NCBI GenBank assembly: GCA_001786765.1
Contig: MFTH01000010.1
Span: forward strand, 34,105 to 98,104
Direction of reading: 5' to 3'
DNA: 64,000 nucleotides
From: Candidatus Nomurabacteria bacterium RIFCSPHIGHO2_01_FULL_37_25
Lineage (GTDB): Bacteria; Patescibacteriota; Minisyncoccia; Phycocordibacterales; UBA9973
Shown here: positions 8,717 to 64,000 of the stretch, piece after piece
How positions within the stretch are numbered: position 1 is the first letter of the stretch
Layout: the number at the start of each line of letters is the position of its first letter
Notes under the pieces: generated by a model
The model's database searches: none
What the model saw: only the letters and a program-made list of their open reading frames with translations
Told to the model about the DNA's origin: nothing
Made by a program: the position numbers and the translations under genes

Positions 8717-9645
8717 TGCACCTTTTGAAAAATAACTTTTTGCGGGGTTTCGAGCCGGGCGGGGCGAGAATTATAGTTATCTTGGGCCAAACTGCCACAG
8801 GGAAAAGTGACTTGGCGGTAAAAATTGCCAAAAAAATAGGCGGAGAAATAATTTCAGCTGATTCAAGACAAGTTTATAAAGGACTCGATATTGGCACTGG
8901 TAAAATTACAGAAAAAGAAATGCAGACCATACCGCATTATCTGCTGGATGTTGCAAATCCCAAAAAACAATTTACTGTAGCGCAATATAAAATCCTGGCA
9001 GATAAAAAGATAAAAGAAGTAATTGATAGAGATAAAATACCGATACTTTGCGGTGGTACAGGATTTTATATTGATGCGGTAACAAAAGGTATGATTTTTC
9101 CAAAAGTTCCACCAAATAAAAAATTAAGAAAAGACTTGGAACAAAAAACAGCTGAGACTCTTTTTAATATCCTGAAAAAATTAGATAAAGATAGGGCAAA
9201 AAGTATAGATTCTAAAAACAAAGTCCGGTTGATAAGAGCAATTGAGATAGCTAAAGCTTTAGGTGAAGTCCCTAAAATTACGGAGGCAACGCCTCCGTAT
9301 AAATTTATAAAAATAGGGTTAAAAGTTCCAGAGAAAACTCTAAAAAGAAAAATAAGAATCAGACTACGCAAGCGCATACGAAGTGGTATGGCGATAGAGC
9401 TTTACAATCTTCGTAAAGCTGGAGTGCCGTGGAAAAGATTCATTGAATTAGGTTTCGATCAAAAGTATATTGCATTATTTTTGCAAGGGAAAATATCTAA
9501 TAAAGAAATGCTAGAAAAACTTTTTAAAAGTAATTGGCAATACGCAAAACGCCAGATGACTTGGTTCAAACGCGACAAAGAAATTAAATGGTTCTCCCCT
9601 GTTTCTTACAAAAAAATAAAAATCTATATAGAAAATAAACTTTAA
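8716..9645 (+). CDS. miaA: tRNA dimethylallyltransferase
   Basis: P-loop GQTATGKS, ADSRQVYKGLDIGTGK, HYLLDV motifs. Confidence 0.9.
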   Translation: MHLLKNNFLRGFEPGGARIIVILGQTATGKSDLAVKIAKKIGGEIISADSRQVYKGLDIGTGKITEKEMQTIPHYLLDVANPKKQFTVAQYKILADKKIKEVIDRDKIPILCGGTGFYIDAVTKGMIFPKVPPNKKLRKDLEQKTAETLFNILKKLDKDRAKSIDSKNKVRLIRAIEIAKALGEVPKITEATPPYKFIKIGLKVPEKTLKRKIRIRLRKRIRSGMAIELYNLRKAGVPWKRFIELGFDQKYIALFLQGKISNKEMLEKLFKSNWQYAKRQMTWFKRDKEIKWFSPVSYKKIKIYIENKL

Positions 9646-17378: not shown

Positions 17379-18158
17379 TCACAAATTAGGAACTATTAAC
17401 GCCACAGATTCCATCAAAGTCTTAACGGAACTTCCGGGCATACGGAGAAATTCTCTAACTTTGAAAAAATGTTGCAAGCAAATTTGTAAAGAATTTTGAA
17501 CAATGTGGGTCCCGCTCGGTACTCCGAGAAGGGTCAAGCCGGAAAAATTCTTTACAAATTTGCTATGCAAAACAGCTTCTAATATATTTAAAAATTTTAG
17601 AGCTTTTGAACGAGTAGAATCTAAAGCAACAATTTCGTTGCCCTCCGCATCTTGCTCTTCTGTTTCGATTAATAATTCTTTAATAAAATCTATTCTTTTC
17701 TGTAAAGGCATACTGATAAATTTCTCTGCCTCTTGCCTTTCCATAGCTAGGTCTTCCATAGCTAGGTCTTGCCTAGCTGGAATTACGTAAAATCTAGAAA
17801 CAAGAGTCTTTAAGAGAGAATTAGCATCCGGCGCAACTAGAAAAAAATGCGTATTTTCTATTGGCTCCTCAAACATTTTCAGTAAAACATTTTGCGCATC
17901 TAAAGAAAAACTATTGACACAAATAACGAATATCTTTTTCTCGGAAGTAAAACTTTTATCCGTTGACATCGCGCGCAAATTAAATGCTTCATCTATTTTA
18001 AAATTATCAATTGTAATCTGACAAAAATCAGGGTTACCGGAAATTTTAATATTTAAATCTCTGCAGAATTTCAGTATTTCCGGCACAATGTTGTTTTTGT
18101 CCCCTTCAATAAGATAGGCGTGGTGTAAATTGTCTTTGTCTAAATGTTCTTTTATCAT
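17379..18158 (-). CDS. holB: DNA polymerase III delta-prime-like subunit (short)
   Basis: HAYLIEG motif and AAA-like N-domain; contains an in-frame DLAME-DLAME 15-bp tandem duplication. Confidence 0.65.
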   Translation of the reverse strand: MIKEHLDKDNLHHAYLIEGDKNNIVPEILKFCRDLNIKISGNPDFCQITIDNFKIDEAFNLRAMSTDKSFTSEKKIFVICVNSFSLDAQNVLLKMFEEPIENTHFFLVAPDANSLLKTLVSRFYVIPARQDLAMEDLAMERQEAEKFISMPLQKRIDFIKELLIETEEQDAEGNEIVALDSTRSKALKFLNILEAVLHSKFVKNFSGLTLLGVPSGTHIVQNSLQICLQHFFKVREFLRMPGSSVKTLMESVALIVPNL

Positions 18159-18188
18159 ACTGTTTATAAAATTGAAAACAATTTATTT

Positions 18189-19970: not shown

Positions 19971-20025
19971 TACTACGAAACATAAATTGAGATAACTTCT
20001 TAAGATTTCCGCATATGCAGAAATC

Positions 20026-30398: not shown

Positions 30399-30705
30399 AA
30401 GGTTAATTTTAGCATTTTTAATGCTTACATAAAAGTTTGATTTAAAAAAGATACAATTTCTCTATATCATTATTTTTTCTTTCTGATATACTTTAGAAGT
30501 ACTTTTATGCTTTCTAAAACATCATTAATTTCTAAATTTTCAAAATTATTACTCACCATAGAATTTTTAGTGGCAATTTGCTTGACATTGCACCTGTGGG
30601 AAACTTTGACTTTTGAATTAAATTTTGTTAGTATTTAGGTAAGCAAGTAATTCCCCGAACGTGAGGCTCCGTATGGTTCCTCTATATAGCGTTCGGGGAT
30701 TTGCT

Positions 30706-31356
30706 TTATCCAAAAAGTGGATTTTCCTCAACAATATCAGATTTAATAATATTGTAATAACTCTCATCTCCATGTTCATATTTCCTAAATATCGCCCACG
30801 ACAACATATCAACAACCTGTAAGGCCTTTTCTTGTGTTGTAGATTTTATTTCAATATCTATATCAATTTTGTGATTATTTTTTGTCTGACTTTTTAGGTA
30901 AGTAGTGAAATTTTGATTCAAAAACTTGTTTGTCTCTCGTCGTGAAGCAATCAGAGAAATTTTCTCGTCAGTGGGAATAAGTTTTTTAGTATAAACACGA
31001 TCTAAAAGAATATTTGTGACATAATTATATAAAACCTGTTTCTCATCTTGTAGTTTTGTATATACTTTTTTCTTATTCAAATATATAACTAGAACATTTG
31101 ACATGTTTTTCTCTCTAAATAAATTCAGCAATTTTTGTCTTGTCTTTGGAGTTTCCTTGAAAGCATGCAAGACCCCGTTATGATTTTTGACTTCAGTTTT
31201 TGAAAAACCTTTAAAAATCTTTTTTACAATTCTTTCGATTAAAACCTTCTCTTTTACAAATAAAAAAGTGATAATAAAATATTTTGAAGTTTTTTTCTTC
31301 TTAAAATTAAAACCAAGATCCCCGCTTTCGTCTAGGAATATATACGCCATTGTCAA
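30706..31356 (-). CDS. DUF3800-family protein
   Basis: N-terminal IFLDESGDLGF motif characteristic of DUF3800. Confidence 0.6.
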   Translation of the reverse strand: MTMAYIFLDESGDLGFNFKKKKTSKYFIITFLFVKEKVLIERIVKKIFKGFSKTEVKNHNGVLHAFKETPKTRQKLLNLFREKNMSNVLVIYLNKKKVYTKLQDEKQVLYNYVTNILLDRVYTKKLIPTDEKISLIASRRETNKFLNQNFTTYLKSQTKNNHKIDIDIEIKSTTQEKALQVVDMLSWAIFRKYEHGDESYYNIIKSDIVEENPLFG

Positions 31357-35676: not shown

Positions 35677-35712
35677 AAGGTTTGTTTCTATCTTTTTTAT
35701 AATGTATACAAC

Positions 35713-35860
35713 TTTGAATTACGAAACTCGTCGAAGGCATGTCTTTTTTAGGGGGTTTCGAGGCTGTCGAGCCGAGAACTTCAGGATTTTTTAAGCTTAA
35801 AAAAATCCGTACCCTAGAAAAAGACATGCCTAGAAAGAGTTTTGTAATTCATGATATACA
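35713..35860. mobile_element. MITE-like element copy 1 (~148 bp, 17-bp TIRs TTTGAATTACGAAACT / AGTTT[TC]GTAATTC[AA])
   Basis: TIRs flank a core with GGCTGTCGAGCCGAG and the perfect palindrome GGATTTTTTAAGCTTAAAAAAATCC. Confidence 0.75.
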
Positions 35861-35979: not shown

Positions 35980-36054
35980 TGGTGAGCGTGGATGGAATCG
36001 GACCATCGGCCTCTGTCTTATCAGGACAGCGTTCTACCACTGAACTACACGCTC
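35980..36054 (-). tRNA. tRNA-Ile(GAT) with atypical T-loop (TCCGATT), CCA encoded
   Basis: Reverse complement GAGCGTGTAGTTCAGTGGTAGAACGCTGTCCTGATAAGACAGAGGCCGATGGTCCGATTCCATCCACGCTCACCA; canonical cloverleaf but C at the usually invariant U55. Confidence 0.65.
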
Positions 36055-36122: not shown

Positions 36123-36147
36123 CTACACGCTCAAAACTTGTGAATTA

Positions 36148-36300
36148 CGAAACTCGTCGAAGGCATGTCTTTTTTAGGGGGTTTCGAGGCTGTCGAGCCG
36201 AGAACTTCAGGATTTTTCAACCTGCCTGCCGGCAGGCAGGGCTTCGAAAAATCCGTATCCTAGAAAAAGACATGCCTAGAAAGAGTTTCGTAATTCAAAG
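36148..36300. mobile_element. MITE-like element copy 2 with nested CCTGCCTGCCGGCAGGCAGGG palindrome replacing the central AAGCTT hairpin
   Basis: Same TIRs and core as copy 1; 36221-36241 carries the P1 palindrome. Confidence 0.75.
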
Positions 36301-36335
36301 TCAAAACATAAACAAATATAACATAAACAAAACAA

Positions 36336-46504: not shown

Positions 46505-46536
46505 GTAGACTCTGTATATGATAAAATTACTCATCT

Positions 46537-46570
46537 GTCTAAGATTTCCGCATATGCGGAAATCTTAGAC
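46537..46570. repeat. 34-bp perfect palindrome GTCTAAGATTTCCGCATATGCGGAAATCTTAGAC (family P3) between convergent genes
   Basis: Perfect dyad; related copies at 20003-20026 and 52081-52106 with half-site 51429-51447. Confidence 0.8.
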
Positions 46571-46572
46571 TC

Positions 46573-47181
46573 TTAGACATGGTATCCGGCTTTTGTAAGC
46601 AATTCTTTTAATAAGTGTATCGGCATACCAACGATACTTTCTTCGTTACCCTCAATTTTTTTAACATAGGGTCTTAAAATGGGATGCTGAACACCAAAAC
46701 CACCAGCTCGACCAAGCGGATCTCCAATTTTTATAAAATTTTCAATTACAGACTCTGAAAATGGATTCCAAAAAACTTGCGCCTTAGCAACACCCTCATA
46801 ATATACTCCTGTGGCAGTGTTAAAGATAACAATGGCTGTTACCCCTTCCGGAGCCACGCCTGCGCTATATTCTCTCAGAAATTTACGCGCTTCTTCTTCC
46901 GACTCCGGTTTTTCCCTCAGTTTTCCATTACACACTGCAACAGCATCAGAAGTAATAAGAAGGGCTGGCTCGTTAATTTTTGATATAAGAACATTCGCCT
47001 TAGCCCTCGCTAGCAAAAGCGGTCTTTTATATGGATCATTCTCTATGATTTCTTTTTCATCTAACTCAGGAATTAAAACTTCAAAAACATAACCCGCTTT
47101 TTCCATGAGATCCTTTCTATATTTAGAAGATGAGCCAAGAATTAATTTCATAAAATTATTTCGCAATTTGTGTAGCTTCAT
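46573..47181 (-). CDS. maf: Maf-like nucleoside triphosphate pyrophosphatase
   Basis: Maf-family homology (LILGSSSKYRKDLM...). Confidence 0.82.
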   Translation of the reverse strand: MKLHKLRNNFMKLILGSSSKYRKDLMEKAGYVFEVLIPELDEKEIIENDPYKRPLLLARAKANVLISKINEPALLITSDAVAVCNGKLREKPESEEEARKFLREYSAGVAPEGVTAIVIFNTATGVYYEGVAKAQVFWNPFSESVIENFIKIGDPLGRAGGFGVQHPILRPYVKKIEGNEESIVGMPIHLLKELLTKAGYHV

Positions 47182-52107: not shown

Positions 52108-52245
52108 GGTAAATAATGCCTCCTTTTTATAGCTCATATGGAGGGCAGGGGCTTGCGCCCCTGCCCTAGAGAGGAAGGGGAAAGTCGATTGAATGGGCTA
52201 GGGGGGTCAGCAACTATTGTTGCTGACCCCCCCCTCCCAAAATAT
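52108..52245 (+). other. GC-rich highly structured element upstream of thrS (two perfect long hairpins inside a GGAGGG/CCCTCC outer stem)
   Basis: GGGCAGGGGCttgcGCCCCTGCCC (10 bp) and GGGGGGTCAGCAACtattGTTGCTGACCCCCC (14 bp). Confidence 0.5.
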
Positions 52246-52264: not shown

Positions 52265-54043
52265 ATGTGTGATATTATAAATAACATAAATTATATGAAC
52301 GAAAATAATAAACTGCAAAATTTAAGACATACTTTAGCCCACTTACTCGCCGCATCTATAAGGGCAATTTATAAAGATTCTCAAAATGCCATTGGTCCGG
52401 CCATAGACGATGGCTTTTATCAGGATTTTGAGTTGGTTGAACCAATTTCCGAAAATGATTTACCAAAAATAGAGAAAAAAATGCGAGAGCTTTTGAAAAA
52501 GTGGAACGCTTTTGAAAAACGAGAAGTAACCCCGCAAGAAGCAAAAAAAGAGTTTGCTTGGAATAAATACAAAGTTGAATTAATTGAAGAATTTGCAAAA
52601 GACGGGAAAAATCTGACTTTCTACACTTGTGGTGATTTTATAGATTTGTGCAAAGGAGGACATTTAGAAAATCCTAGTAAAGAACTTCCGTTTGACGCTT
52701 TCAAACTAGACCGTGTGGCCGGAGCTTACTGGCGTGGAGATGAAAAGAATAAAATGCTTACGCGTATTTATGGTTTAGCCTTTGAAACCAAAGAAGAATT
52801 AGACGCATACATAATGCAAAGAATAGAAGCAGAGAAAAGAGACCACAGAGAGTTGGGCAAAAAATTAGAATTATTCACTTTTGATGAAGAGGTCGGGAAG
52901 GGTCTGCCTATTTGGTTGCCAAAGGGAAATATAATTAAAGAAGAATTAGAAAATTGGGCAAAAGAGACAGAAAAAAAATGGAATTACCAAAGAGTCACGA
53001 CCCCAATAATCACAAAAGAAAATTTGTTTTACACCTCTGGGCATTTGCCTTTATACAAAGAAAGCATGTATGCGCCTATATCTATCGAAGAAGAAAATTA
53101 CTATATAAAACCGATGAATTGTCCTTTTCATCATAAAGTATTTTCTGCCCTTCCCAGAAGTTATAAAGATTTGCCTCTTCGTCTGGCAGAATACGGATGG
53201 TGTCATAGATATGAAGATTCTGGAAGTCTTTTTGGGCTGATGAGAGTGCGTGGAATGCAAATGAATGATGCTCACATATATACAACACAAGAGCAAGCGA
53301 TAAATGAATTTGTGGATGTAATAAGATTGCACGAATATTATTACAAAGTGCTTGATATAGATAAATATGAGATGGAATTGGCTTTGCGAGATCCAAAAAA
53401 AATAGATAAATATCATGGCGAAGAAAAAGATTGGAAAATGGCAGAAGAAATGACAATAAAAGCTATGGAACTCTCAGGAGTGCCGTTTAAGATAGTCCAT
53501 GAAGGAGCCGCCTTTTACGGACCAAAAATGGATTTCCAAATATATTCTTCTATCGGCAGATCTTTCACTGCTTCAACAAATCAATTAGATTTATACATGG
53601 GTAAAAGATTCAAGTTAGAATATACAGACAAAGATGGGTCTAGAAAAACACCATTTATAATACACCGAGCTCCGCTTGGAACCCACGAAAGATTTATTGG
53701 ATTTTTAATAGAACACTTTGGCGGCGCCTTCCCTCTTTGGCTTTCGCCTGTACAGGTCAAGGTCATACCCGTGCGGGAAAATCATAATGAATACGCGAGA
53801 AAAATTTTTGAATCATTAAGAGAAAATAATATCCGCGTAGAACTTGACGAAGGAGACCAAAACCTAGGCACGAAAGTTCGTGACGCTAAAAATAACAAGC
53901 TACCCTACTGGATAGTCGTCGGTGATAAAGAAATTGAAGCGAATAAAATAACTTTAGAATCACGCGATTCCGGTCAGCTTGGGCAAATGAGTCGCGAAGA
54001 ACTCATAAAAAAACTTTTGGAAGAAATAAAGAATAAAAAATAA
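52265..54043 (+). CDS. thrS: Threonyl-tRNA synthetase lacking the N-terminal TGS domain
   Basis: Editing/SAD HxxxH (HTLAHLL), class II motifs, anticodon-binding domain. Confidence 0.9.
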   Translation: MCDIINNINYMNENNKLQNLRHTLAHLLAASIRAIYKDSQNAIGPAIDDGFYQDFELVEPISENDLPKIEKKMRELLKKWNAFEKREVTPQEAKKEFAWNKYKVELIEEFAKDGKNLTFYTCGDFIDLCKGGHLENPSKELPFDAFKLDRVAGAYWRGDEKNKMLTRIYGLAFETKEELDAYIMQRIEAEKRDHRELGKKLELFTFDEEVGKGLPIWLPKGNIIKEELENWAKETEKKWNYQRVTTPIITKENLFYTSGHLPLYKESMYAPISIEEENYYIKPMNCPFHHKVFSALPRSYKDLPLRLAEYGWCHRYEDSGSLFGLMRVRGMQMNDAHIYTTQEQAINEFVDVIRLHEYYYKVLDIDKYEMELALRDPKKIDKYHGEEKDWKMAEEMTIKAMELSGVPFKIVHEGAAFYGPKMDFQIYSSIGRSFTASTNQLDLYMGKRFKLEYTDKDGSRKTPFIIHRAPLGTHERFIGFLIEHFGGAFPLWLSPVQVKVIPVRENHNEYARKIFESLRENNIRVELDEGDQNLGTKVRDAKNNKLPYWIVVGDKEIEANKITLESRDSGQLGQMSREELIKKLLEEIKNKK

Positions 54044-54047
54044 CCTA

Positions 54048-54190
54048 GTTTGAATTACGAAACTCTTACTTGGCATATCTTTTTCTAGGGTACAGATTTT
54101 TTGAAGCTTAAAAAATCTTGAAGTTTGCTCGCCGTCGCTCGCAAAACCCCCTAAAAAAGACATGCCTGCGACAAGTTTCGTAATTCAAAG
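54048..54190. mobile_element. MITE-like element copy 3 (opposite orientation, ~85% identity to copy 1), followed by a degenerate partial copy at ~54205-54275
   Basis: Same 17-bp TIRs TTTGAATTACGAAACT...AGTTTCGTAATTCAAAG and AAGCTT-centred internal hairpin. Confidence 0.75.
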
Positions 54191-54337
54191 TTAATTAGTA
54201 TAAATTCCAAAAAAACTCGTCGCAGGTGTAGTTTTTGGTAGACATTGCGCAGGCTGACGAGCCGAGCATAGCAAATTTTCAGCAGAAAATTATGCGTGTC
54301 TAACAAAAATTATACCGAGAAAGAGTTTTTTTGGAAT

Positions 54338-55709: not shown

Positions 55710-55747
55710 ACTTGTATATTATAACAACAAATAAGCGGCAAAAATAC

Positions 55748-55952
55748 TTGACTTTTTCATTTTATTGTGCTATACTATAAGGGTAATAAGGTCTTTGAAA
55801 ATATAATATGTTTCGAGTTATTCTTGAGTGGTTCGCCCATCAAGTAGCTAAAGAAATTTAGCTCTTTGCTCGGCGAACGACTCGAAAAATAAATCCATTC
55901 CGACGAAAGTCGGAATACAACATGCGTCTATGAGGCGCAAAGGGAGAAGGAA
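55748..55952 (+). promoter_or_regulatory. Promoter (TTGACT-17-TATACT) plus ~170-nt structured leader, copy 1
   Basis: Near-identical promoter and colinear leader at 57351-57556, with compensatory stem changes. Confidence 0.65.
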
Positions 55953-57298: not shown

Positions 57299-57350
57299 AT
57301 TTTAATATTATAAAATAAGGATAAAATAGCTTTTTTGTCAAGATTAAACC

Positions 57351-57556
57351 TTGACTTTTTCATTTTATTGTGCTATACTATAAAGGTAATCAGGTCTTTG
57401 AAAATATAATATGTTCTGAGTCATTCTTGAGCAGTTTGCCTATCAAGTAGCTAAAGAGATTTGGCTCTTTGCTTGGCAAACGAGCTCAAGGAATGGAAAC
57501 TTCTCTGGTGAAAGCCAGAGTACAAATGCGTCATCTTGACGCGAAAGGAGTCCACA
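57351..57556 (+). promoter_or_regulatory. Promoter (TTGACT-17-TATACT) plus ~170-nt structured leader, copy 2
   Basis: See copy 1; the ORF-track ORF 57469-57702 lies inside the leader and is probably not coding. Confidence 0.65.
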
Positions 57557-59118: not shown

Positions 59119-59511
59119 CTAGAAAGGAGTGGTTGGAAAAGTGATAGTTTGAGGATTTGTATCAATTCCAAAAGTGTTTGTTAGAATCTTTACGAGTCCC
59201 CATACGGTAACAATAACAGCCAAGCCAATTATGCCAAATATTATTCTGTCTCGTCCTTTCTTTTTTGCTTCTGCATCATCTCCAATAACATAAGAAATTA
59301 CTCCCCATACAAAGTAAATGACCCCTAAGATAATTATAATAGGAACAATTTGAGTAAAAAGTTGAGCTATCTTACATAAGATAGCTTCAATTGTGCCTGT
59401 ACCCACACTAGCACAATTAGTAGAAGTACCCCCCGTCGTCACCTGCGCCAATGCCATAACAGGCGCTAGACCTAAAACAAAACCCGACAAAACAATTAAT
59501 TTCTTTTTCAT
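59119..59511 (-). CDS. TrbC/VirB2-like pilin-family protein (paralog 2, with signal peptide)
   Basis: Signal peptide, then IIILGVIYFVWGVISYVIGDDAEAKKKGRDRIIFGIIGLAVIVTVWGLV core. Confidence 0.55.
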   Translation of the reverse strand: MKKKLIVLSGFVLGLAPVMALAQVTTGGTSTNCASVGTGTIEAILCKIAQLFTQIVPIIIILGVIYFVWGVISYVIGDDAEAKKKGRDRIIFGIIGLAVIVTVWGLVKILTNTFGIDTNPQTITFPTTPF

Positions 59512-59622
59512 CCCGTTTAGAAATTATGATATCCGTACATTACCTTTAGGTATATAAAGAAACACAATTCTTACTTTTATAATTTCTCCCGTTTTCTAAA
59601 TTTCTAACGGGATTCAAAACGA
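59512..59622 (-). promoter_or_regulatory. 5' leader inverted repeat (CCCGTTAGAAATT...AATTTCTAAACGGG-ATG) of pilin paralog 2
   Basis: 13/14-bp arms enclosing ~80 nt; 3' arm abuts the ATG. Confidence 0.45.
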
Positions 59623-59726
59623 CTTTGATAATAATTAATAATACTTAATAAAGAACTACCATGCTATTGTACCACAAACAGTATCAAAAAAGAAAGCAAG
59701 CCCCGTCTGAATAAAGACGCTGAAAG

Positions 59727-60302
59727 TTATGGGGGTGGTGTCTTAACTTGTGGAATAAAACTAGTGTTAATCCCAAAGGTAGTACCTAGTATTTCAACCA
59801 ACCCCCAAACGGAAACCATCACCGTCAAAGCAATCAACCCCCAAAGCATAAATTGCTTGCCTTTTTGCTTTTTCGCCTCTTCGTCGCTTTTGATAACATA
59901 CTGCACCACACCCCAGACAAACATCACCATCGCTAAAGCGAAAATAAGAGGAATGATAGCGTTGTTAATAATGGTGGTGATATAACACACAAGGTCTTGA
60001 AATCTCGGATAGGGACCAAGAGTTTGGCAAGTGTCTATGGGCTCAAAGACGGGCCCAGTTGCATTTGTAAGCCCGAAAGTTTCAGCAATAATGCTTACAA
60101 GTCCCCATACAGACACAATAACAGTCAAGCCAATGATGCCATATATTATTCTATCTCTCCCTTTCTTTTTTGCTTCATCACCGCCCCCTATAACATACTG
60201 CACCACGCCCCAGACAAAATAGACCACTCCTAAAGCAACCAAAACAGGAATGATTGAACTAAGAATATTATACGCCTCAAATATTAAATCCTCTATGGTC
60301 AT
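59727..60302 (-). CDS. Tandem-duplicated TrbC/VirB2-like pilin-family protein (two complete core modules in one ORF)
   Basis: Two copies of ...LGVVYFVWGVVQYVIGGGDEAKKKGRDRIIYGIIGLTVIVSVWGLV... / ...LAMVMFVWGVVQYVIKSDEEAKKQKGKQFMLWGLIALTVMVSVWGLV... Confidence 0.55.
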   Translation of the reverse strand: MTIEDLIFEAYNILSSIIPVLVALGVVYFVWGVVQYVIGGGDEAKKKGRDRIIYGIIGLTVIVSVWGLVSIIAETFGLTNATGPVFEPIDTCQTLGPYPRFQDLVCYITTIINNAIIPLIFALAMVMFVWGVVQYVIKSDEEAKKQKGKQFMLWGLIALTVMVSVWGLVEILGTTFGINTSFIPQVKTPPP

Positions 60303-61217: not shown

Positions 61218-62516
61218 TTATCTTAATAATAACAACCCCAACTTGGAGCTTGCGTCAGAAATCGCATTTTCAACGGTCAGATTATTTGAGAGCACTTTAT
61301 CAATCATATTGCGAAAAATGTTGTCTGTGTCTGCGGGTGACGGGTCAAGCCAGCTCCTCGCATAAAGCGCTGAATCATAAAAAATTGAAGAATAGCTATC
61401 AGTCGGCTTCACCTTGAGTAAATCTCGGCGCGCTGGCGCCGTCCCGGTGGCTAAAGCGAACTTGGAAGCAAAATCCCCGGCAGACAAGAGTCCAGCCGCT
61501 GTAAAAGCAGTGTTGAAGTTCTTCGAAGAAGAGAGTATTGCTATCCCTGTTACATTAGCGCCAGTTAACTTAAAAGTAGAATCTTTTATTTGAGGCATTG
61601 GAGCAACTCCAAAATTTTGATTTGGATTTTTATTTACCAAAGACGCAAGCTCGCTCGCAAATCCAAAATAAAATATTAAATCTTCTCTTGAAAATACATT
61701 ATTAGAATTCGAAAATGACCTATTCCAAGAATATACGTCTTTATTTGGGTCAGCGAAATCCGTATAGAATTTTAAAATTTCGCTAAGATTATATTTTGGA
61801 TTAGCTGAAAGGGCGCTCAAACTAGAATTAAAAATTCCATTTTTCTCCAAAACGATTTTATTTCCTGCCTGCATAAAAAGAGTAGTTAAAATAGTTTTGG
61901 CATTAATAACATTTGAAAAATGTCCAAACGCAATCGCGCTTTTTATTATTTTATTTGAATCATCTTTTTTAGTAAGTTTCAGCGCAAGGCTAGTCAAATC
62001 ATCCCAAAAAGCCGGAGGATACACTACCCCATCCGCATCAAGAAGACTTCGATTATAATACATCATAAGAGGGTCAATAGATAAGGGAAAAGCTAGAACA
62101 CCTTTGGAGGTCAAAAATACTTCCCCTGCGCCGGCAAAATTATTCTTAAATGAAGCAAGTGGATAACTAGCATATGGAATGGAAATAATTCTATCAATAT
62201 AATGAAGGGCTAAATTGTCCGGCAAGAGAAACATATCAGGCCCAGAACCCGATGCTAAAGCTTCAAGTAAATCTTGGTCAAAACTTTCCGCTCTTTTTTG
62301 CGTATATTTCACAATAAAAGTAGGATTAGCTTTATTAAATTCCTCGAGAAGTGGAGACATGATATTGTCACCTACCGTTCCCCATAAGACAACAGTGCCG
62401 AGAACTCCCGGTTTGTTTTGCTCTCCAATTGGTATCGCGCCAGAAAAAACTAAAACACCAAAAATAGCTAAGACGATGAAAACAATTGTTATTATAAGTT
62501 GAAAATTTTCTTTCAT
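61218..62516 (-). CDS. ABC transporter substrate-binding protein (family 1, sugar-type)
   Basis: N-terminal TM/signal, SBP_bac_1-like fold motifs. Confidence 0.75.
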   Translation of the reverse strand: MKENFQLIITIVFIVLAIFGVLVFSGAIPIGEQNKPGVLGTVVLWGTVGDNIMSPLLEEFNKANPTFIVKYTQKRAESFDQDLLEALASGSGPDMFLLPDNLALHYIDRIISIPYASYPLASFKNNFAGAGEVFLTSKGVLAFPLSIDPLMMYYNRSLLDADGVVYPPAFWDDLTSLALKLTKKDDSNKIIKSAIAFGHFSNVINAKTILTTLFMQAGNKIVLEKNGIFNSSLSALSANPKYNLSEILKFYTDFADPNKDVYSWNRSFSNSNNVFSREDLIFYFGFASELASLVNKNPNQNFGVAPMPQIKDSTFKLTGANVTGIAILSSSKNFNTAFTAAGLLSAGDFASKFALATGTAPARRDLLKVKPTDSYSSIFYDSALYARSWLDPSPADTDNIFRNMIDKVLSNNLTVENAISDASSKLGLLLLR

Positions 62517-62634
62517 CCCGTACGAAATAGGACGCGTACGCTTGCACTACAGTTGTCCTTTTTATTATTTATAATATATTTAATCGGTTTCATAATTTTG
62601 TTTACTTTCATGCGTCCGCGATTTCGTTCGGGAT

Positions 62635-63150
62635 TCATTTCTTTATAAATATCATACCATAATGATGCTCGCCGGCGTTAATATCTCTATCAAAAACAAA
62701 ACCTTTTTTTTCAAACATTTCACGAGCTTTATTTTTTGGAATAATGGTTGTTGCATTCATAATTTGAGACTGCGACCAATCAATCAACAATACTCGCCCA
62801 TTTTGTTTTAATATTCTTTTTATTTCTTCGATGAACACCTCTTTGTTTTCCACTTGGAAAAGAACGTTGGAAGCAATAACCGCATCTACGATACTATTAC
62901 CTATTTTTGTTCCTTCAATTTTTTCAACATCACCCCAGAGAATTTCTACATTATTTAAACGGGCTTCTGTTATTTTGTTTTTTATTGTGTTCAAAAAATC
63001 TTTATTTATCTCAACAGCATAGACTTTTCCTTGAGGTACCATCGCCCCCGCGGCGACAGAGTAAAAACCAGTTCCTGCGCCCAAATCCGCCACAATGTTA
63101 TTTTCCTTTAGTCCAAAAGCTTTTAAATTTTTTATTGGATCGGTGAACAT
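62635..63150 (-). CDS. Class I SAM-dependent methyltransferase
   Basis: Motif I DLGAGTGFYS, small Rossmann MTase. Confidence 0.75.
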   Translation of the reverse strand: MFTDPIKNLKAFGLKENNIVADLGAGTGFYSVAAGAMVPQGKVYAVEINKDFLNTIKNKITEARLNNVEILWGDVEKIEGTKIGNSIVDAVIASNVLFQVENKEVFIEEIKRILKQNGRVLLIDWSQSQIMNATTIIPKNKAREMFEKKGFVFDRDINAGEHHYGMIFIKK

Positions 63151-63212
63151 CTATACATTATAGTATTAAAAAACTTAATTTGCATTGAAGTTATTAACAA
63201 AAAACCTTGATG

Positions 63213-63880
63213 TCAAAGAGACACTTTGACATAATACAGTGAATGAGTAATAGAGATTATAAAAAATTTAATATTGGATCAATAGCTCACATTTACAACA
63301 GAGGAAATAACAAGGAAAAAATATTTTTTGATGATCAAGATTACAGAGCTTTTCTTTTTAGACTTGCTTTAGTTTTAGGATTTGACCAAAAAGAATTACA
63401 AAACGAAAACTTGTTAAGTATGCCTTATTCCAGAATACGAATTGAATTTAAAGGAAAAAATAAATTCAAAATACATGCTTTTTGTCTTATGCCAAATCAT
63501 TTTCATTTATTAATTGAGCAAGTTGGAGATACCTCAATTTCAAAATTAATTTCAAAAGTCTGTTCAAGTTATTCTAAATATATAAATAAAAAATATAAAC
63601 GTGTTGGACATACTTTTCAAGATTGTTTTAAAGCTGTAATTATTGAGAATAATCCTCAACTAATGTGGGTTTCGTCTTATATCCACATGAATGCAGTAAA
63701 AGATGGTTTGGTAAAACACCCTTCTGAATATTTATGGAGTAGTTACAACGATTACACTTCCCTCAGAAATTTACCGTTAGTTACAAAAGAATTATTAATA
63801 GAAACTTTTGGCGATGAGAAAAATTTTATAGAACAAACATTGAATTTTAGTGTCAAAGTGTCTCTTTGACACCCTTACCT
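63213..63880 (+). mobile_element. IS200/IS605-type element carrying a RAYT-like Y1 transposase, flanked by complementary hairpins
   Basis: Left hairpin TGTCAAAGagacacTTTGACA (63215-63235); right GTGTCAAAGtgtctcTTTGACAC (63855-63877), the reverse complement of the left. Confidence 0.7.
63243..63869 (+). CDS. tnpA: IS200-like / REP-associated tyrosine transposase (HuH Y1)
   Basis: HuH motif LMPNHFHLL, catalytic Tyr region (WSSYNDY), ~200-aa RAYT-length form. Confidence 0.78.
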   Translation: MSNRDYKKFNIGSIAHIYNRGNNKEKIFFDDQDYRAFLFRLALVLGFDQKELQNENLLSMPYSRIRIEFKGKNKFKIHAFCLMPNHFHLLIEQVGDTSISKLISKVCSSYSKYINKKYKRVGHTFQDCFKAVIIENNPQLMWVSSYIHMNAVKDGLVKHPSEYLWSSYNDYTSLRNLPLVTKELLIETFGDEKNFIEQTLNFSVKVSL

Positions 63881-63898
63881 TTGACATATATGCACTAT

Positions 63899-64000
63899 TT
63901 AAAGCTTTTTGTAAATATCCCAATTCTTGTTTGAATCTCGAATAAATCCATCTATTTGAAAAGATAAAAATTCTAAAGCACCAAAATAAATTCCTCCGTG
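63899..64000 (-). CDS. C-terminal end of an unidentified gene (3' partial at window edge)
   Basis: Open frame ...HGGIYFGALEFLSFQIDGFIRDSNKNWDIYKKL ending at TAA 63899-63901. Confidence 0.25.
   Translation of the reverse strand, partial: HGGIYFGALEFLSFQIDGFIRDSNKNWDIYKKL

Follow-up and report, generated by a model that had tools for sequence, protein, structure and literature searches.

The host role of REP-associated tyrosine transposases (RAYTs; REP, repetitive extragenic palindrome) is an open question, and in the best-studied cases hundreds of REPs blur the function of the gene with the mobility of the repeat. In Escherichia coli, TnpA_REP (RAYT; Bertels group 2, Quentin subclass 2.2; structure 4er8) combines a Y1 HUH fold and one catalytic tyrosine with a single-copy chromosomal gene that is bracketed by copies of the hairpin it recognizes. 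The genes known as TIRYTs (Quentin subclass 2.1, PMC6006769; RAYT group 1, PMC5581495) lie between terminal repeats in units called TIRtrons, and these repeats can be self-complementary, can reach into the ends of the gene and can make up small repeat families that occur as dimers (Di Nocera 2013, PMC3733652). Here we describe a related gene in 64,000 nucleotides of contig MFTH01000010.1 from Candidatus Nomurabacteria bacterium RIFCSPHIGHO2_01_FULL_37_25, the whole stretch being referred to below as the window. The gene encodes a Y1 HUH protein and sits between two copies of a 21-nt hairpin. It is probably a domesticated REP-associated-type Y1 HUH endonuclease gene with its two cognate hairpins, a REPtron/TIRtron-like unit. 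The kind of arrangement is known, and the lineage is one in which it was not described before; Quentin et al. contain no Patescibacteria term (Parcubacteria, Nomurabacteria; PMC6006769), and none of the literature searched connects RAYTs with Patescibacteria. The features of the unit in window coordinates are:

63207..63235, + strand: promoter-like TTGATG-17 nt-CATAAT from a consensus scan; the 5' hairpin fills the spacer and the ATG follows 7 nt after the -10-like box
63210..63232, + strand: 5' hairpin, presumed cognate, A-TGTCAAAG-AGACA-CTTTGACA-T; stem of 8 conserved pairs closed by an A-T pair, 5-nt loop
63243..63869, + strand: Y1 HUH gene, RAYT/TIRYT-like, 208 aa; HUH codons 63498-63506, Tyr146 codon 63678-63680
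63850..63872, + strand: 3' hairpin, presumed cognate, G-TGTCAAAG-TGTCT-CTTTGACA-C; codes for the C-terminal S-V-K-V-S-L and includes the stop codon TGA (63867-63869)
63879..63888, + strand: extra half-site CTTTGACATA, a third copy of the 3' arm, 7 nt past the 3' hairpin

The Y1 protein and its locus

The gene is the sole open reading frame (ORF) of the region 63213-63880. Its product matches the Pfam domain Y1_Tnp (PF01797; 51.5 bits against a cut-off of 23), and the top NCBIfam model is REP_Tyr_transpos (NF047646), while transpos_IS200 (NF033573) stays at 22.5 bits against an equivalog cut-off of 55. The HUH motif is formed by H86-F87-H88 within the sequence MPNHFHLL, and Tyr146, within YIHMNAVK, aligns with the first tyrosine of YIYINPVK in 4er8. 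Counted from the alignment coordinates the latter is chain residue 115, which we take to be the catalytic residue. Both motifs are invariant in an alignment of 36 sequences from two paralogous families, A (that of the window) and B. The tyrosine motif of the window protein is of the form Y---N (YIHMNA) and not Y---Q, while YIH(M/L)NP, the RAYT-class Y---NP motif, is found in about two thirds of the family-A orthologues and in nearly all aligned family-B sequences.

By sequence, the sole meaningful match to a solved structure is 4er8, TnpA_REP bound to a REP hairpin (E 0.004). An AlphaFold2 model built from the 36-sequence alignment (predicted local distance difference test score, pLDDT, 77.8; predicted template modelling score, pTM, 0.78) has the HUH/RRM-like fold, and a Foldseek search of the PDB with this predicted model places 4er8 first (E 6e-7, TM-score 0.73 on the target), ahead of the IS200, IS608 and ISDra2 transposases (E of at least 2e-4, TM-scores 0.55-0.64). 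Y1 transposases account for six of the seven top hits and most of the top 30, the remainder being Thg1-type enzymes with lower TM-scores. Judged by its sequence and predicted fold, the protein is nearer to E. coli TnpA_REP than to the short IS200 TnpA. It shares with TnpA_REP the fold and the single catalytic tyrosine, and its gene is likewise single-copy, chromosomal and bracketed by copies of a hairpin that by analogy it would recognize. It differs in that identity is only about 16% over the structural alignment, in having F-Q at the position of W94-Q95, and in about 40 extra residues at the C-terminus. This tail has no Pfam match (residues 168-208; no DnaA_C or helix-turn-helix (HTH) domain detected) and is modelled as just three short helices at low confidence (pLDDT 39-68). 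PADLOC finds no defence-system match for either family.

By inspection, the protein carries the same motifs as TIRYTs (subclass 2.1, RAYT group 1), namely NHFH, FQ (residues 124-125), YIHMN(A/P) and the serine pair of WSSY. The second signature variant listed for subclass 2.1 reads NH[YF]H, FQ, Y[IV]HLNP and a serine pair in the proximal tail (PMC6006769), and in this subclass too the protein exceeds the core domain; the distal HTH of subclass 2.1 (DnaA_C, HTH_23, HTH_28-like) was not picked up by Pfam in the tail of the window protein. The HuH form NH[IFV]H of subclass 2.4 (Bertels group 4) also fits, whereas FQ in place of WQ, YIHMN in place of YIxNNP, and the absence of an internal hairpin from the window gene and of a GT[AG]G 'double foot' REP from the window unit set it apart. 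The TnpA proteins of IS200, IS608 and ISDra2 (subclass 1.1) belong to the same superfamily, with the same fold, hairpins at both gene ends and, presumably, the same single-stranded DNA chemistry. However, they consist of the core of about 150 aa with a Y---Q motif (PMC6006769), while the window protein has Y---N and 208 aa with a C-terminal extension, and its gene is not multicopy, not mobile and without a tnpB partner.

The genomic setting is that of a resident gene. The best 120 of over 6,800 homologues show 70-83% identity (one of them 100%) and nearly all have 206-219 aa; the lineages named among them are all Patescibacteria (Nomurabacteria, Paceibacterota). Clusters at 90% identity mostly hold one to few member sequences, on few contigs. 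In four independent genomes (L001, L003, L078 and L079; the loci fetched carry L numbers) the order is solute-binding protein and methyltransferase (-), Y1 gene (+) and gyrA (-), with an isochorismatase gene between the Y1 gene and gyrA in one lineage (L003). The window has the same upstream neighbours, and its downstream convergent ORF, of which 33 codons lie inside the window, matches neither gyrA nor the L003 isochorismatase. Each locus fetched holds one family-A gene copy, and no tnpB partner stands beside the Y1 gene at the loci examined. Among orthologues the pairwise ratio of nonsynonymous to synonymous substitution (dN/dS) is 0.04-0.12 at a dS of at least 1; because synonymous sites are saturated, the orthologues are not recent copies of each other. 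Plasmid records gave 17 distant protein matches (at most 33.5% identity) and phage records one, and viral contigs contain zero copies of the 21-mer. The gene is not a mobile or active insertion sequence; it is domesticated, vertically inherited and single-copy. Low copy number, vertical inheritance and absence from plasmids are among the hallmarks by which Bertels et al. part domesticated RAYTs from insertion sequences (PMC5581495), and the family described here shows them, with near absence from plasmids.

A preliminary description made from the sequence alone had proposed a 208-aa protein with an HUH motif and a C-terminal tyrosine, of the longer RAYT-like form, and the ORF, the Pfam and NCBIfam matches and the 4er8 match bear this out. 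Of its designation 'IS200/IS605-type RAYT-like', the RAYT likeness stands by NCBIfam, fold and the Y---N motif, and the insertion-sequence part gives way to the fixed locus and purifying selection.

One family-A locus looks damaged. At L009 (5217-5830; Nomurabacteria RIFCSPLOWO2_12_FULL_40_42) truncation affects both the Y1 gene (75 aa) and its methyltransferase neighbour (99 aa), reflecting a decayed locus or an assembly problem; the genome nonetheless holds five exact copies of the hairpin.

Hairpins at the gene ends

The 5' 21-mer TGTCAAAGAGACACTTTGACA (63211-63231) lies 11 nt 5' of the ATG, and the 3' 21-mer TGTCAAAGTGTCTCTTTGACA (63851-63871) is its exact reverse complement (21/21), confirming what had been noticed at the outset; none of 100 shuffles of the window gave any match. 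The position first assigned to the start of the element, 63213, falls inside the 5' hairpin, the ORF starting at 63243. Folded as single-stranded DNA, both form a 9-bp stem with a 5-nt loop, at -7.9 (5') and -8.6 (3') kcal/mol with folding z-scores of -6.0 and -5.2, respectively. The arms are palindromic, and the two copies differ just in the loop, AGACA against TGTCT. Twelve of 13 family-A loci have AGACA as the 5' loop, while the 3' loop varies, with AGACA in direct orientation the commonest, TGTCT in the window, and ACGGT, GCGGG and further variants elsewhere. Since the copies differ only in the loop, and the 3' loop is mostly direct in orthologues, the inverted arrangement is not a conserved feature; as far as the sequences compared indicate, the reverse-complement relation of the flanks is special to the source genome and comes down to five bases. 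The half-site at 63879-63888 could be what is left of a doublet or of an earlier 3' arm. Rfam gives no match at 62500-64000 (E up to 1) and only three tRNAs in the whole window, thus no known RNA family explains the hairpins.

In its overall layout the unit comes closest to the TIRtron of Di Nocera 2013, a gene flanked by terminal repeats, and like RAYT group 1 it has flanking 16-mers of low genomic frequency (about 12 for group 1; PMC5581495). However, the published consensus GGGGWSAS, which many TIRs carry (PMC3733652), is absent from the unit, and the terminal repeats, which are inverted in the window, run in the same direction in most orthologues. Subclass 2.1 genes were reported to lack adjacent REP-like hairpins (PMC6006769), whereas here hairpins are the rule. 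Relative to the REPs of E. coli the window hairpin lacks the GTAG guide tetranucleotide and is short and perfect, with a stem of 8-9 bp and no bulge.

All family-A loci read have the hairpin on both sides of the Y1 gene, in degenerate form for two of the 3' copies. The 5' copy is the same as that of the window in 12 of 13 loci although the adjacent coding sequence is saturated (dS of at least 1), and at L078 both ends have changed together to TGTCAAGGA-cag-TCCTTGACA. Among 33 aligned flanking copies, the stem pair formed by columns 10 and 18 is A-T in 23, G-C in 10 and unpaired in none; the change to G-C is found in the more remote orthologues.

Family B repeats the arrangement with a different hairpin. 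This Y1 paralogue (about 211 aa, 32-37% identical to family A) occupies a fixed locus of its own (dnaB, recR, Y1 gene, rplU) and is bracketed by CATAGGA-GTT/AAC-TCCTATG at both ends in four of the five loci read; at the fifth, L053, the upstream flank is masked and the downstream variant is ATAGGG-taa-CCCTAT.

L018, 7047-7085 and 7738-7772 (also L075, L076 and L077): family-B gene flanks, hairpin CATAGGA-NNN-TCCTATG, sometimes as doublets

In two cases a family-A and a family-B protein share the locus tag of one genome, and for two family-B proteins the longest contigs measure 598,563 and 337,777 nt, sizes equal to those of contigs with the family-A hairpin, suggesting that both families are present in one genome.

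More distant relatives extend the pattern. Among metagenomic homologues with both flanks available (n=70, 32-76% identical), 57 share at least 12 nt between the 5' flank and the 3' end (median of the shared sequence 18 nt), a length reached by 1 of 300 mismatched-pair controls. A perfect-stem hairpin with the same core at both ends was resolved in 37 of the 70, and the hairpin differs by subfamily. From this pattern of sequence conservation we infer that the flanking hairpin is the gene's own cognate element, constrained far beyond the neutral expectation and co-varying with the protein family. The enzyme's cognate repeat is on this evidence the very hairpin that the preliminary description had treated just as a boundary.

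The hairpins are also interlocked with the start and the end of the gene. The context CTTG(A/C)-hairpin-TAAT is kept upstream of 11 of the 13 family-A genes read, with the start codon 6-8 nt past TAAT, and in family B, and likewise in several metagenomic relatives, TATAAT or TATACT follows straight after the hairpin. In the window the divergent methyltransferase and Y1 genes (63150-63170 and 63230-63245) each start 6-7 nt past a TATAAT-like box and lack a Shine-Dalgarno sequence, suggesting leaderless transcripts for both. Because the methyltransferase gene, too, has TATAAT 6 nt from its ATG, leaderless-type starts look normal here. By its match to the consensus and its placement, 63207-63235 is a putative promoter. 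At the other end, family-A proteins mostly terminate in VK-x-x-L followed by the stop codon, and in family B the stop codon TAG likewise lies within the 3' hairpin.

Two further candidates at the gene ends were rejected. A mini-ORF (MSKRHFDIIQ) opened by the 5' hairpin ends just before the main ATG, and CTG replaces its own ATG in 6 of 13 family-A loci. A canonical intrinsic terminator at the 3' hairpin is contradicted by the T-rich tail, which is weak in the window and missing from orthologues.

Hairpin copies in related genomes and competing explanations

An exact scan for the 21-mer covered one genome per species in 185,579 species (596 Gb) and found 86 copies on 69 stretches in 34 genomes, 1-9 per genome, against a chance expectation that we estimate at about 0.3 copies (596 Gb, two strands, over 4^21). 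Nearly all of the 34 genomes are labelled as Patescibacteria-group, two having generic labels only. Inverted, REPIN-like doublets with spacers of 4-37 nt occur at seven loci, a further likeness to E. coli TnpA_REP, and at L020 the Y1 gene itself is flanked by doublets.

Most dispersed copies lie in long ORFs and are read in frame, as xSK(RH/CL)FDx at 16 independent sites and as CQRDTLT at two. The host genes include YchF (named as such in the source) and, by reading of the surrounding peptides, MiaA-, ThrRS-, LeuRS- and Dus-like ORFs and a translational GTPase. Orthologous sites across species carry either loop orientation or another loop (L016/L064/L037; L058/L062); being shared by several species, such copies are old. 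The presence or absence of intragenic copies nevertheless differs among related genomes, and since none of 120 close homologues shares the copy in YchF of L047 (2157-2177), the gain of copies continues. The window orthologues of three host genes (MiaA, 8767-9597; ThrRS, near 53780; ORF 17382-18161) have no hairpin. Net additions are seen where gaps of 12 and 24 aa in L013 lie opposite doublets of L023 and L046. Short palindromes are thereby documented in frame within essential genes (YchF; genes read as ThrRS, MiaA and Dus), a point of importance for the annotation and protein alignments of Patescibacteria.

Palindromes read in frame have two precedents. Rickettsia palindromic elements (RPE) are palindromic repeats of about 100-150 bp inserted in frame in protein-coding genes, and to our knowledge no dedicated enzyme has been assigned to them. 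The similarity lies in small, gene-dense genomes whose palindromic copies survive as in-frame peptides in variable loops, the difference in the unit of 21 nt (46-95 nt as a doublet) with an associated Y1 gene. In-frame REPs inside the RAYT gene itself were described by Quentin et al. for subclass 2.4 (PMC6006769), a trait shared by distant Patescibacteria relatives of the window gene; several other Y1 subfamilies have extra copies of their own hairpin nearby or in frame within their own gene. In-frame copies inside the Y1 gene were observed at L098, L103, L114, L121, L139, L142, L144 and L155, with those of L142 at positions 1459, 1631, 1900 and 2105.

By analogy with E. coli TnpA_REP and IS608 TnpA (PMC3479197, PMC6006769), the protein would recognize the folded hairpin on single-stranded DNA exposed by a replication fork or by transcription. 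Tyr146 would then attack a phosphodiester bond close to the foot of the hairpin while the HUH histidines coordinate the metal ion, and the product would be a covalent 5'-phosphotyrosine intermediate open to re-ligation. In some related genomes such activity may have seeded a few extra 21-mers, as singletons or inverted doublets, mostly tolerated in frame in genes. Given its position in the promoter-like spacer, the 5' hairpin could upon protein binding let the protein set its own expression, while the 3' hairpin with its stop codon may mark the other edge of an ancestral element.

Several points weigh against this interpretation of the locus as a domesticated endonuclease with its cognate hairpins. 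Binding and cleavage are carried over to the window family from related enzymes and autoregulation is deduced from the position of the 5' hairpin, and the REP_Tyr_transpos score (68.2 bits) is under the equivalog cut-off of 80. The compensatory change in the palindrome fits a double-stranded operator of a dimeric protein equally well as a single-stranded hairpin. No conserved GT[AG]G-like 5' tetranucleotide stands beside the hairpin in 86 dispersed and 33 gene-flanking copies, a check that the preliminary description had proposed for the palindromes and that we made for the gene-flanking hairpin. The copy number is tiny by comparison with classical REPs, with none in the window beyond the two flanks, where even a degenerate match was sought across the 64 kb; JBAZKU010000001 (598 kb) has the two gene-flanking copies and no others, and across 658 kb of related sequence the family-B hairpin turned up only at its own gene. 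In place of the tens to hundreds of extragenic copies of a classical REP, or the hundreds in E. coli, there is a handful, mostly intragenic. Several genomes with dispersed copies have no family-A locus among the loci fetched, their assemblies being incomplete metagenome bins. Moreover, at least two intragenic copies take the place of a stretch of almost the same length, which a simple IS608-like insertion does not predict: in YchF (L047) nine native residues are swapped for eight, with no addition of 21 nt, and in the ThrRS-like ORF (L048, 6228-6248, compared with the window at 53780) eight are swapped for eight. Microhomology as the source of these replacements was considered and set aside, nucleotide comparison of YchF and ThrRS giving only unconvincing matches of 5-6 nt. 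In-frame spread, same-length replacement, loop flipping and retention without a dispersed repeat population are details left unexplained.

The strongest competitor holds that the hairpins are now purely cis-regulatory or structural (an operator in the promoter, a barrier or terminator between convergent genes), that the Y1 protein has a host function without DNA movement, and that the dispersed copies are old relics. We consider this unlikely, yet it keeps appreciable weight because the compensatory stem change cannot part a hairpin from a double-stranded operator. It accommodates flanking hairpins kept without dispersed exact copies (the window, JBAZKU01 and all of family B), a 5' copy embedded in a promoter-like site in families A and B and several other relatives, the age of the copies at orthologous sites, and a terminator scan that flagged both hairpins as terminator-like. 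However, a mere DNA binder would not need the HUH motif and tyrosine that are invariant under strong purifying selection, the intragenic copies differ between related genomes with that of YchF in L047 recently gained, and orthologues have no T-run past the 3' hairpin, so that it is not a canonical terminator.

A second, improbable alternative is that the dispersed 21-mers are not products of the Y1 enzyme at all, being sites for another factor or having accumulated by mutation and biased recombination in the manner of DNA uptake sequences, and merely also stand beside the gene. The two same-length replacements, the strong reading-frame preference (16 sites against two) and the copy-bearing genomes in which no family-A locus was fetched speak for it. 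It is opposed by the 1-9 copies per genome, where DNA uptake sequences have far more, by the presence of the 21-mer on either side of the Y1 gene wherever a family-A locus was read (degenerate on the 3' side in two), and by the private bracketing hairpins of most other Y1 subfamilies examined, several of which have additional copies close by or within the Y1 gene itself. An active IS200/IS605-type insertion sequence, transposing as a single-stranded circle with the subterminal hairpins as its left and right ends, is brought to mind by a Y1_Tnp domain and a hairpin-gene-hairpin unit within 660 bp that resembles a minimal IS200, but is very improbable given the same neighbours at every family-A locus with enough flank, one family-A copy per fetched locus in orthologues saturated at synonymous sites, an IS200 score of 22.5 against 55, Y---N in place of Y---Q, the lack of tnpB, and near absence of the family from plasmids and phages.

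A more far-reaching interpretation, which we likewise consider unlikely, is that the Y1 HUH enzymes of Patescibacteria are housekeeping processors of DNA hairpins and not mobilizers of repeats. Genomes of about 0.6 Mb would on this proposal keep two paralogues under strong purifying selection, beside gyrA and dnaB-recR; each hairpin would double as an operator in a leaderless-type promoter and as a reading-frame end, and both would persist without dispersed repeats; and a by-product would be the 21-nt hairpin written into coding sequence as same-length patches. If true, same-length patching is a mode of spread not described for RAYTs or IS200/IS605.

The gene-plus-hairpin unit recurs across Patescibacteria, a group with some of the smallest bacterial genomes known. 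It offers a stripped-down system of one enzyme, two sites in cis and a handful in trans, with two paralogues that have private hairpins and some genomes without dispersed copies, in which binding, cleavage, autoregulation and spread are each directly testable.

Other palindromes and features of the window

The preliminary description had also pictured a genome rich in REP-like palindromes, with the enzyme as a possible mobilizer of three palindrome families and a MITE-like (miniature inverted-repeat transposable element) repeat. Neither idea fits what was found. The window has 20 short-range inverted repeats per 64 kb in addition to lacking any further hairpin copy; the Y1 genes examined lie between hairpins specific to their own lineages, and a search of 159 loci for the remaining palindromes of the window (17477-17564, 30645-30706, 52194-52239, the MITE-like element and the family of 46537-46570) placed none of them beside a Y1 gene. 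These other elements are:

17477-17564: 88-nt element in ORF 17382-18161 (-), bounded by perfect 21-nt inverted repeats AGCAAATTTGTAAAGAATTTT and with a nested hairpin
30645-30706: hairpin with 17-nt arms AAGTAATTCCCCGAACG
35698-35858, 36124-36304 and 54034-54194: MITE-like element of about 160 nt with terminal inverted repeats TTGAATTACGAAACTC
46537-46570: 34-nt perfect palindrome GTCTAAGATTTCCGCATATGCGGAAATCTTAGAC, with two diverged relatives near 20004 and 52083; absent from the 159 fetched loci
52194-52239: GC-rich hairpin with 21-nt arms

The outer arms of the palindrome at 46536-46579 (TGTCTAAG/CTTAGACA) resemble the arms of the hairpin at the Y1 gene, which we take for coincidence since the other copies of the family are without those arms. 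For the MITE-like element, the first two copies of which bracket a tRNA gene (35983-36054, -), no link to any Y1 gene was found in the 159 loci; a single match to its terminal inverted repeat, inside the Y1 gene of L142, was discarded as a one-mismatch chance match. ORF 17382-18161 (-) is conserved (about 260 aa) and reads through the 88-nt element, which sits at the exact site of the 21-nt hairpin in the orthologues of L016, L064 and L037; palindromes seem to have inserted repeatedly in this loop. Finally, the segment 56001-60000, in which no rRNA or other Rfam family was detected, has a G+C content of 0.47 compared with about 0.35 elsewhere in the window, and diverged internal repeats accompany this G+C-rich region at 55747-55880 and 57350-57483 (90% identity) and at 59168-60265.

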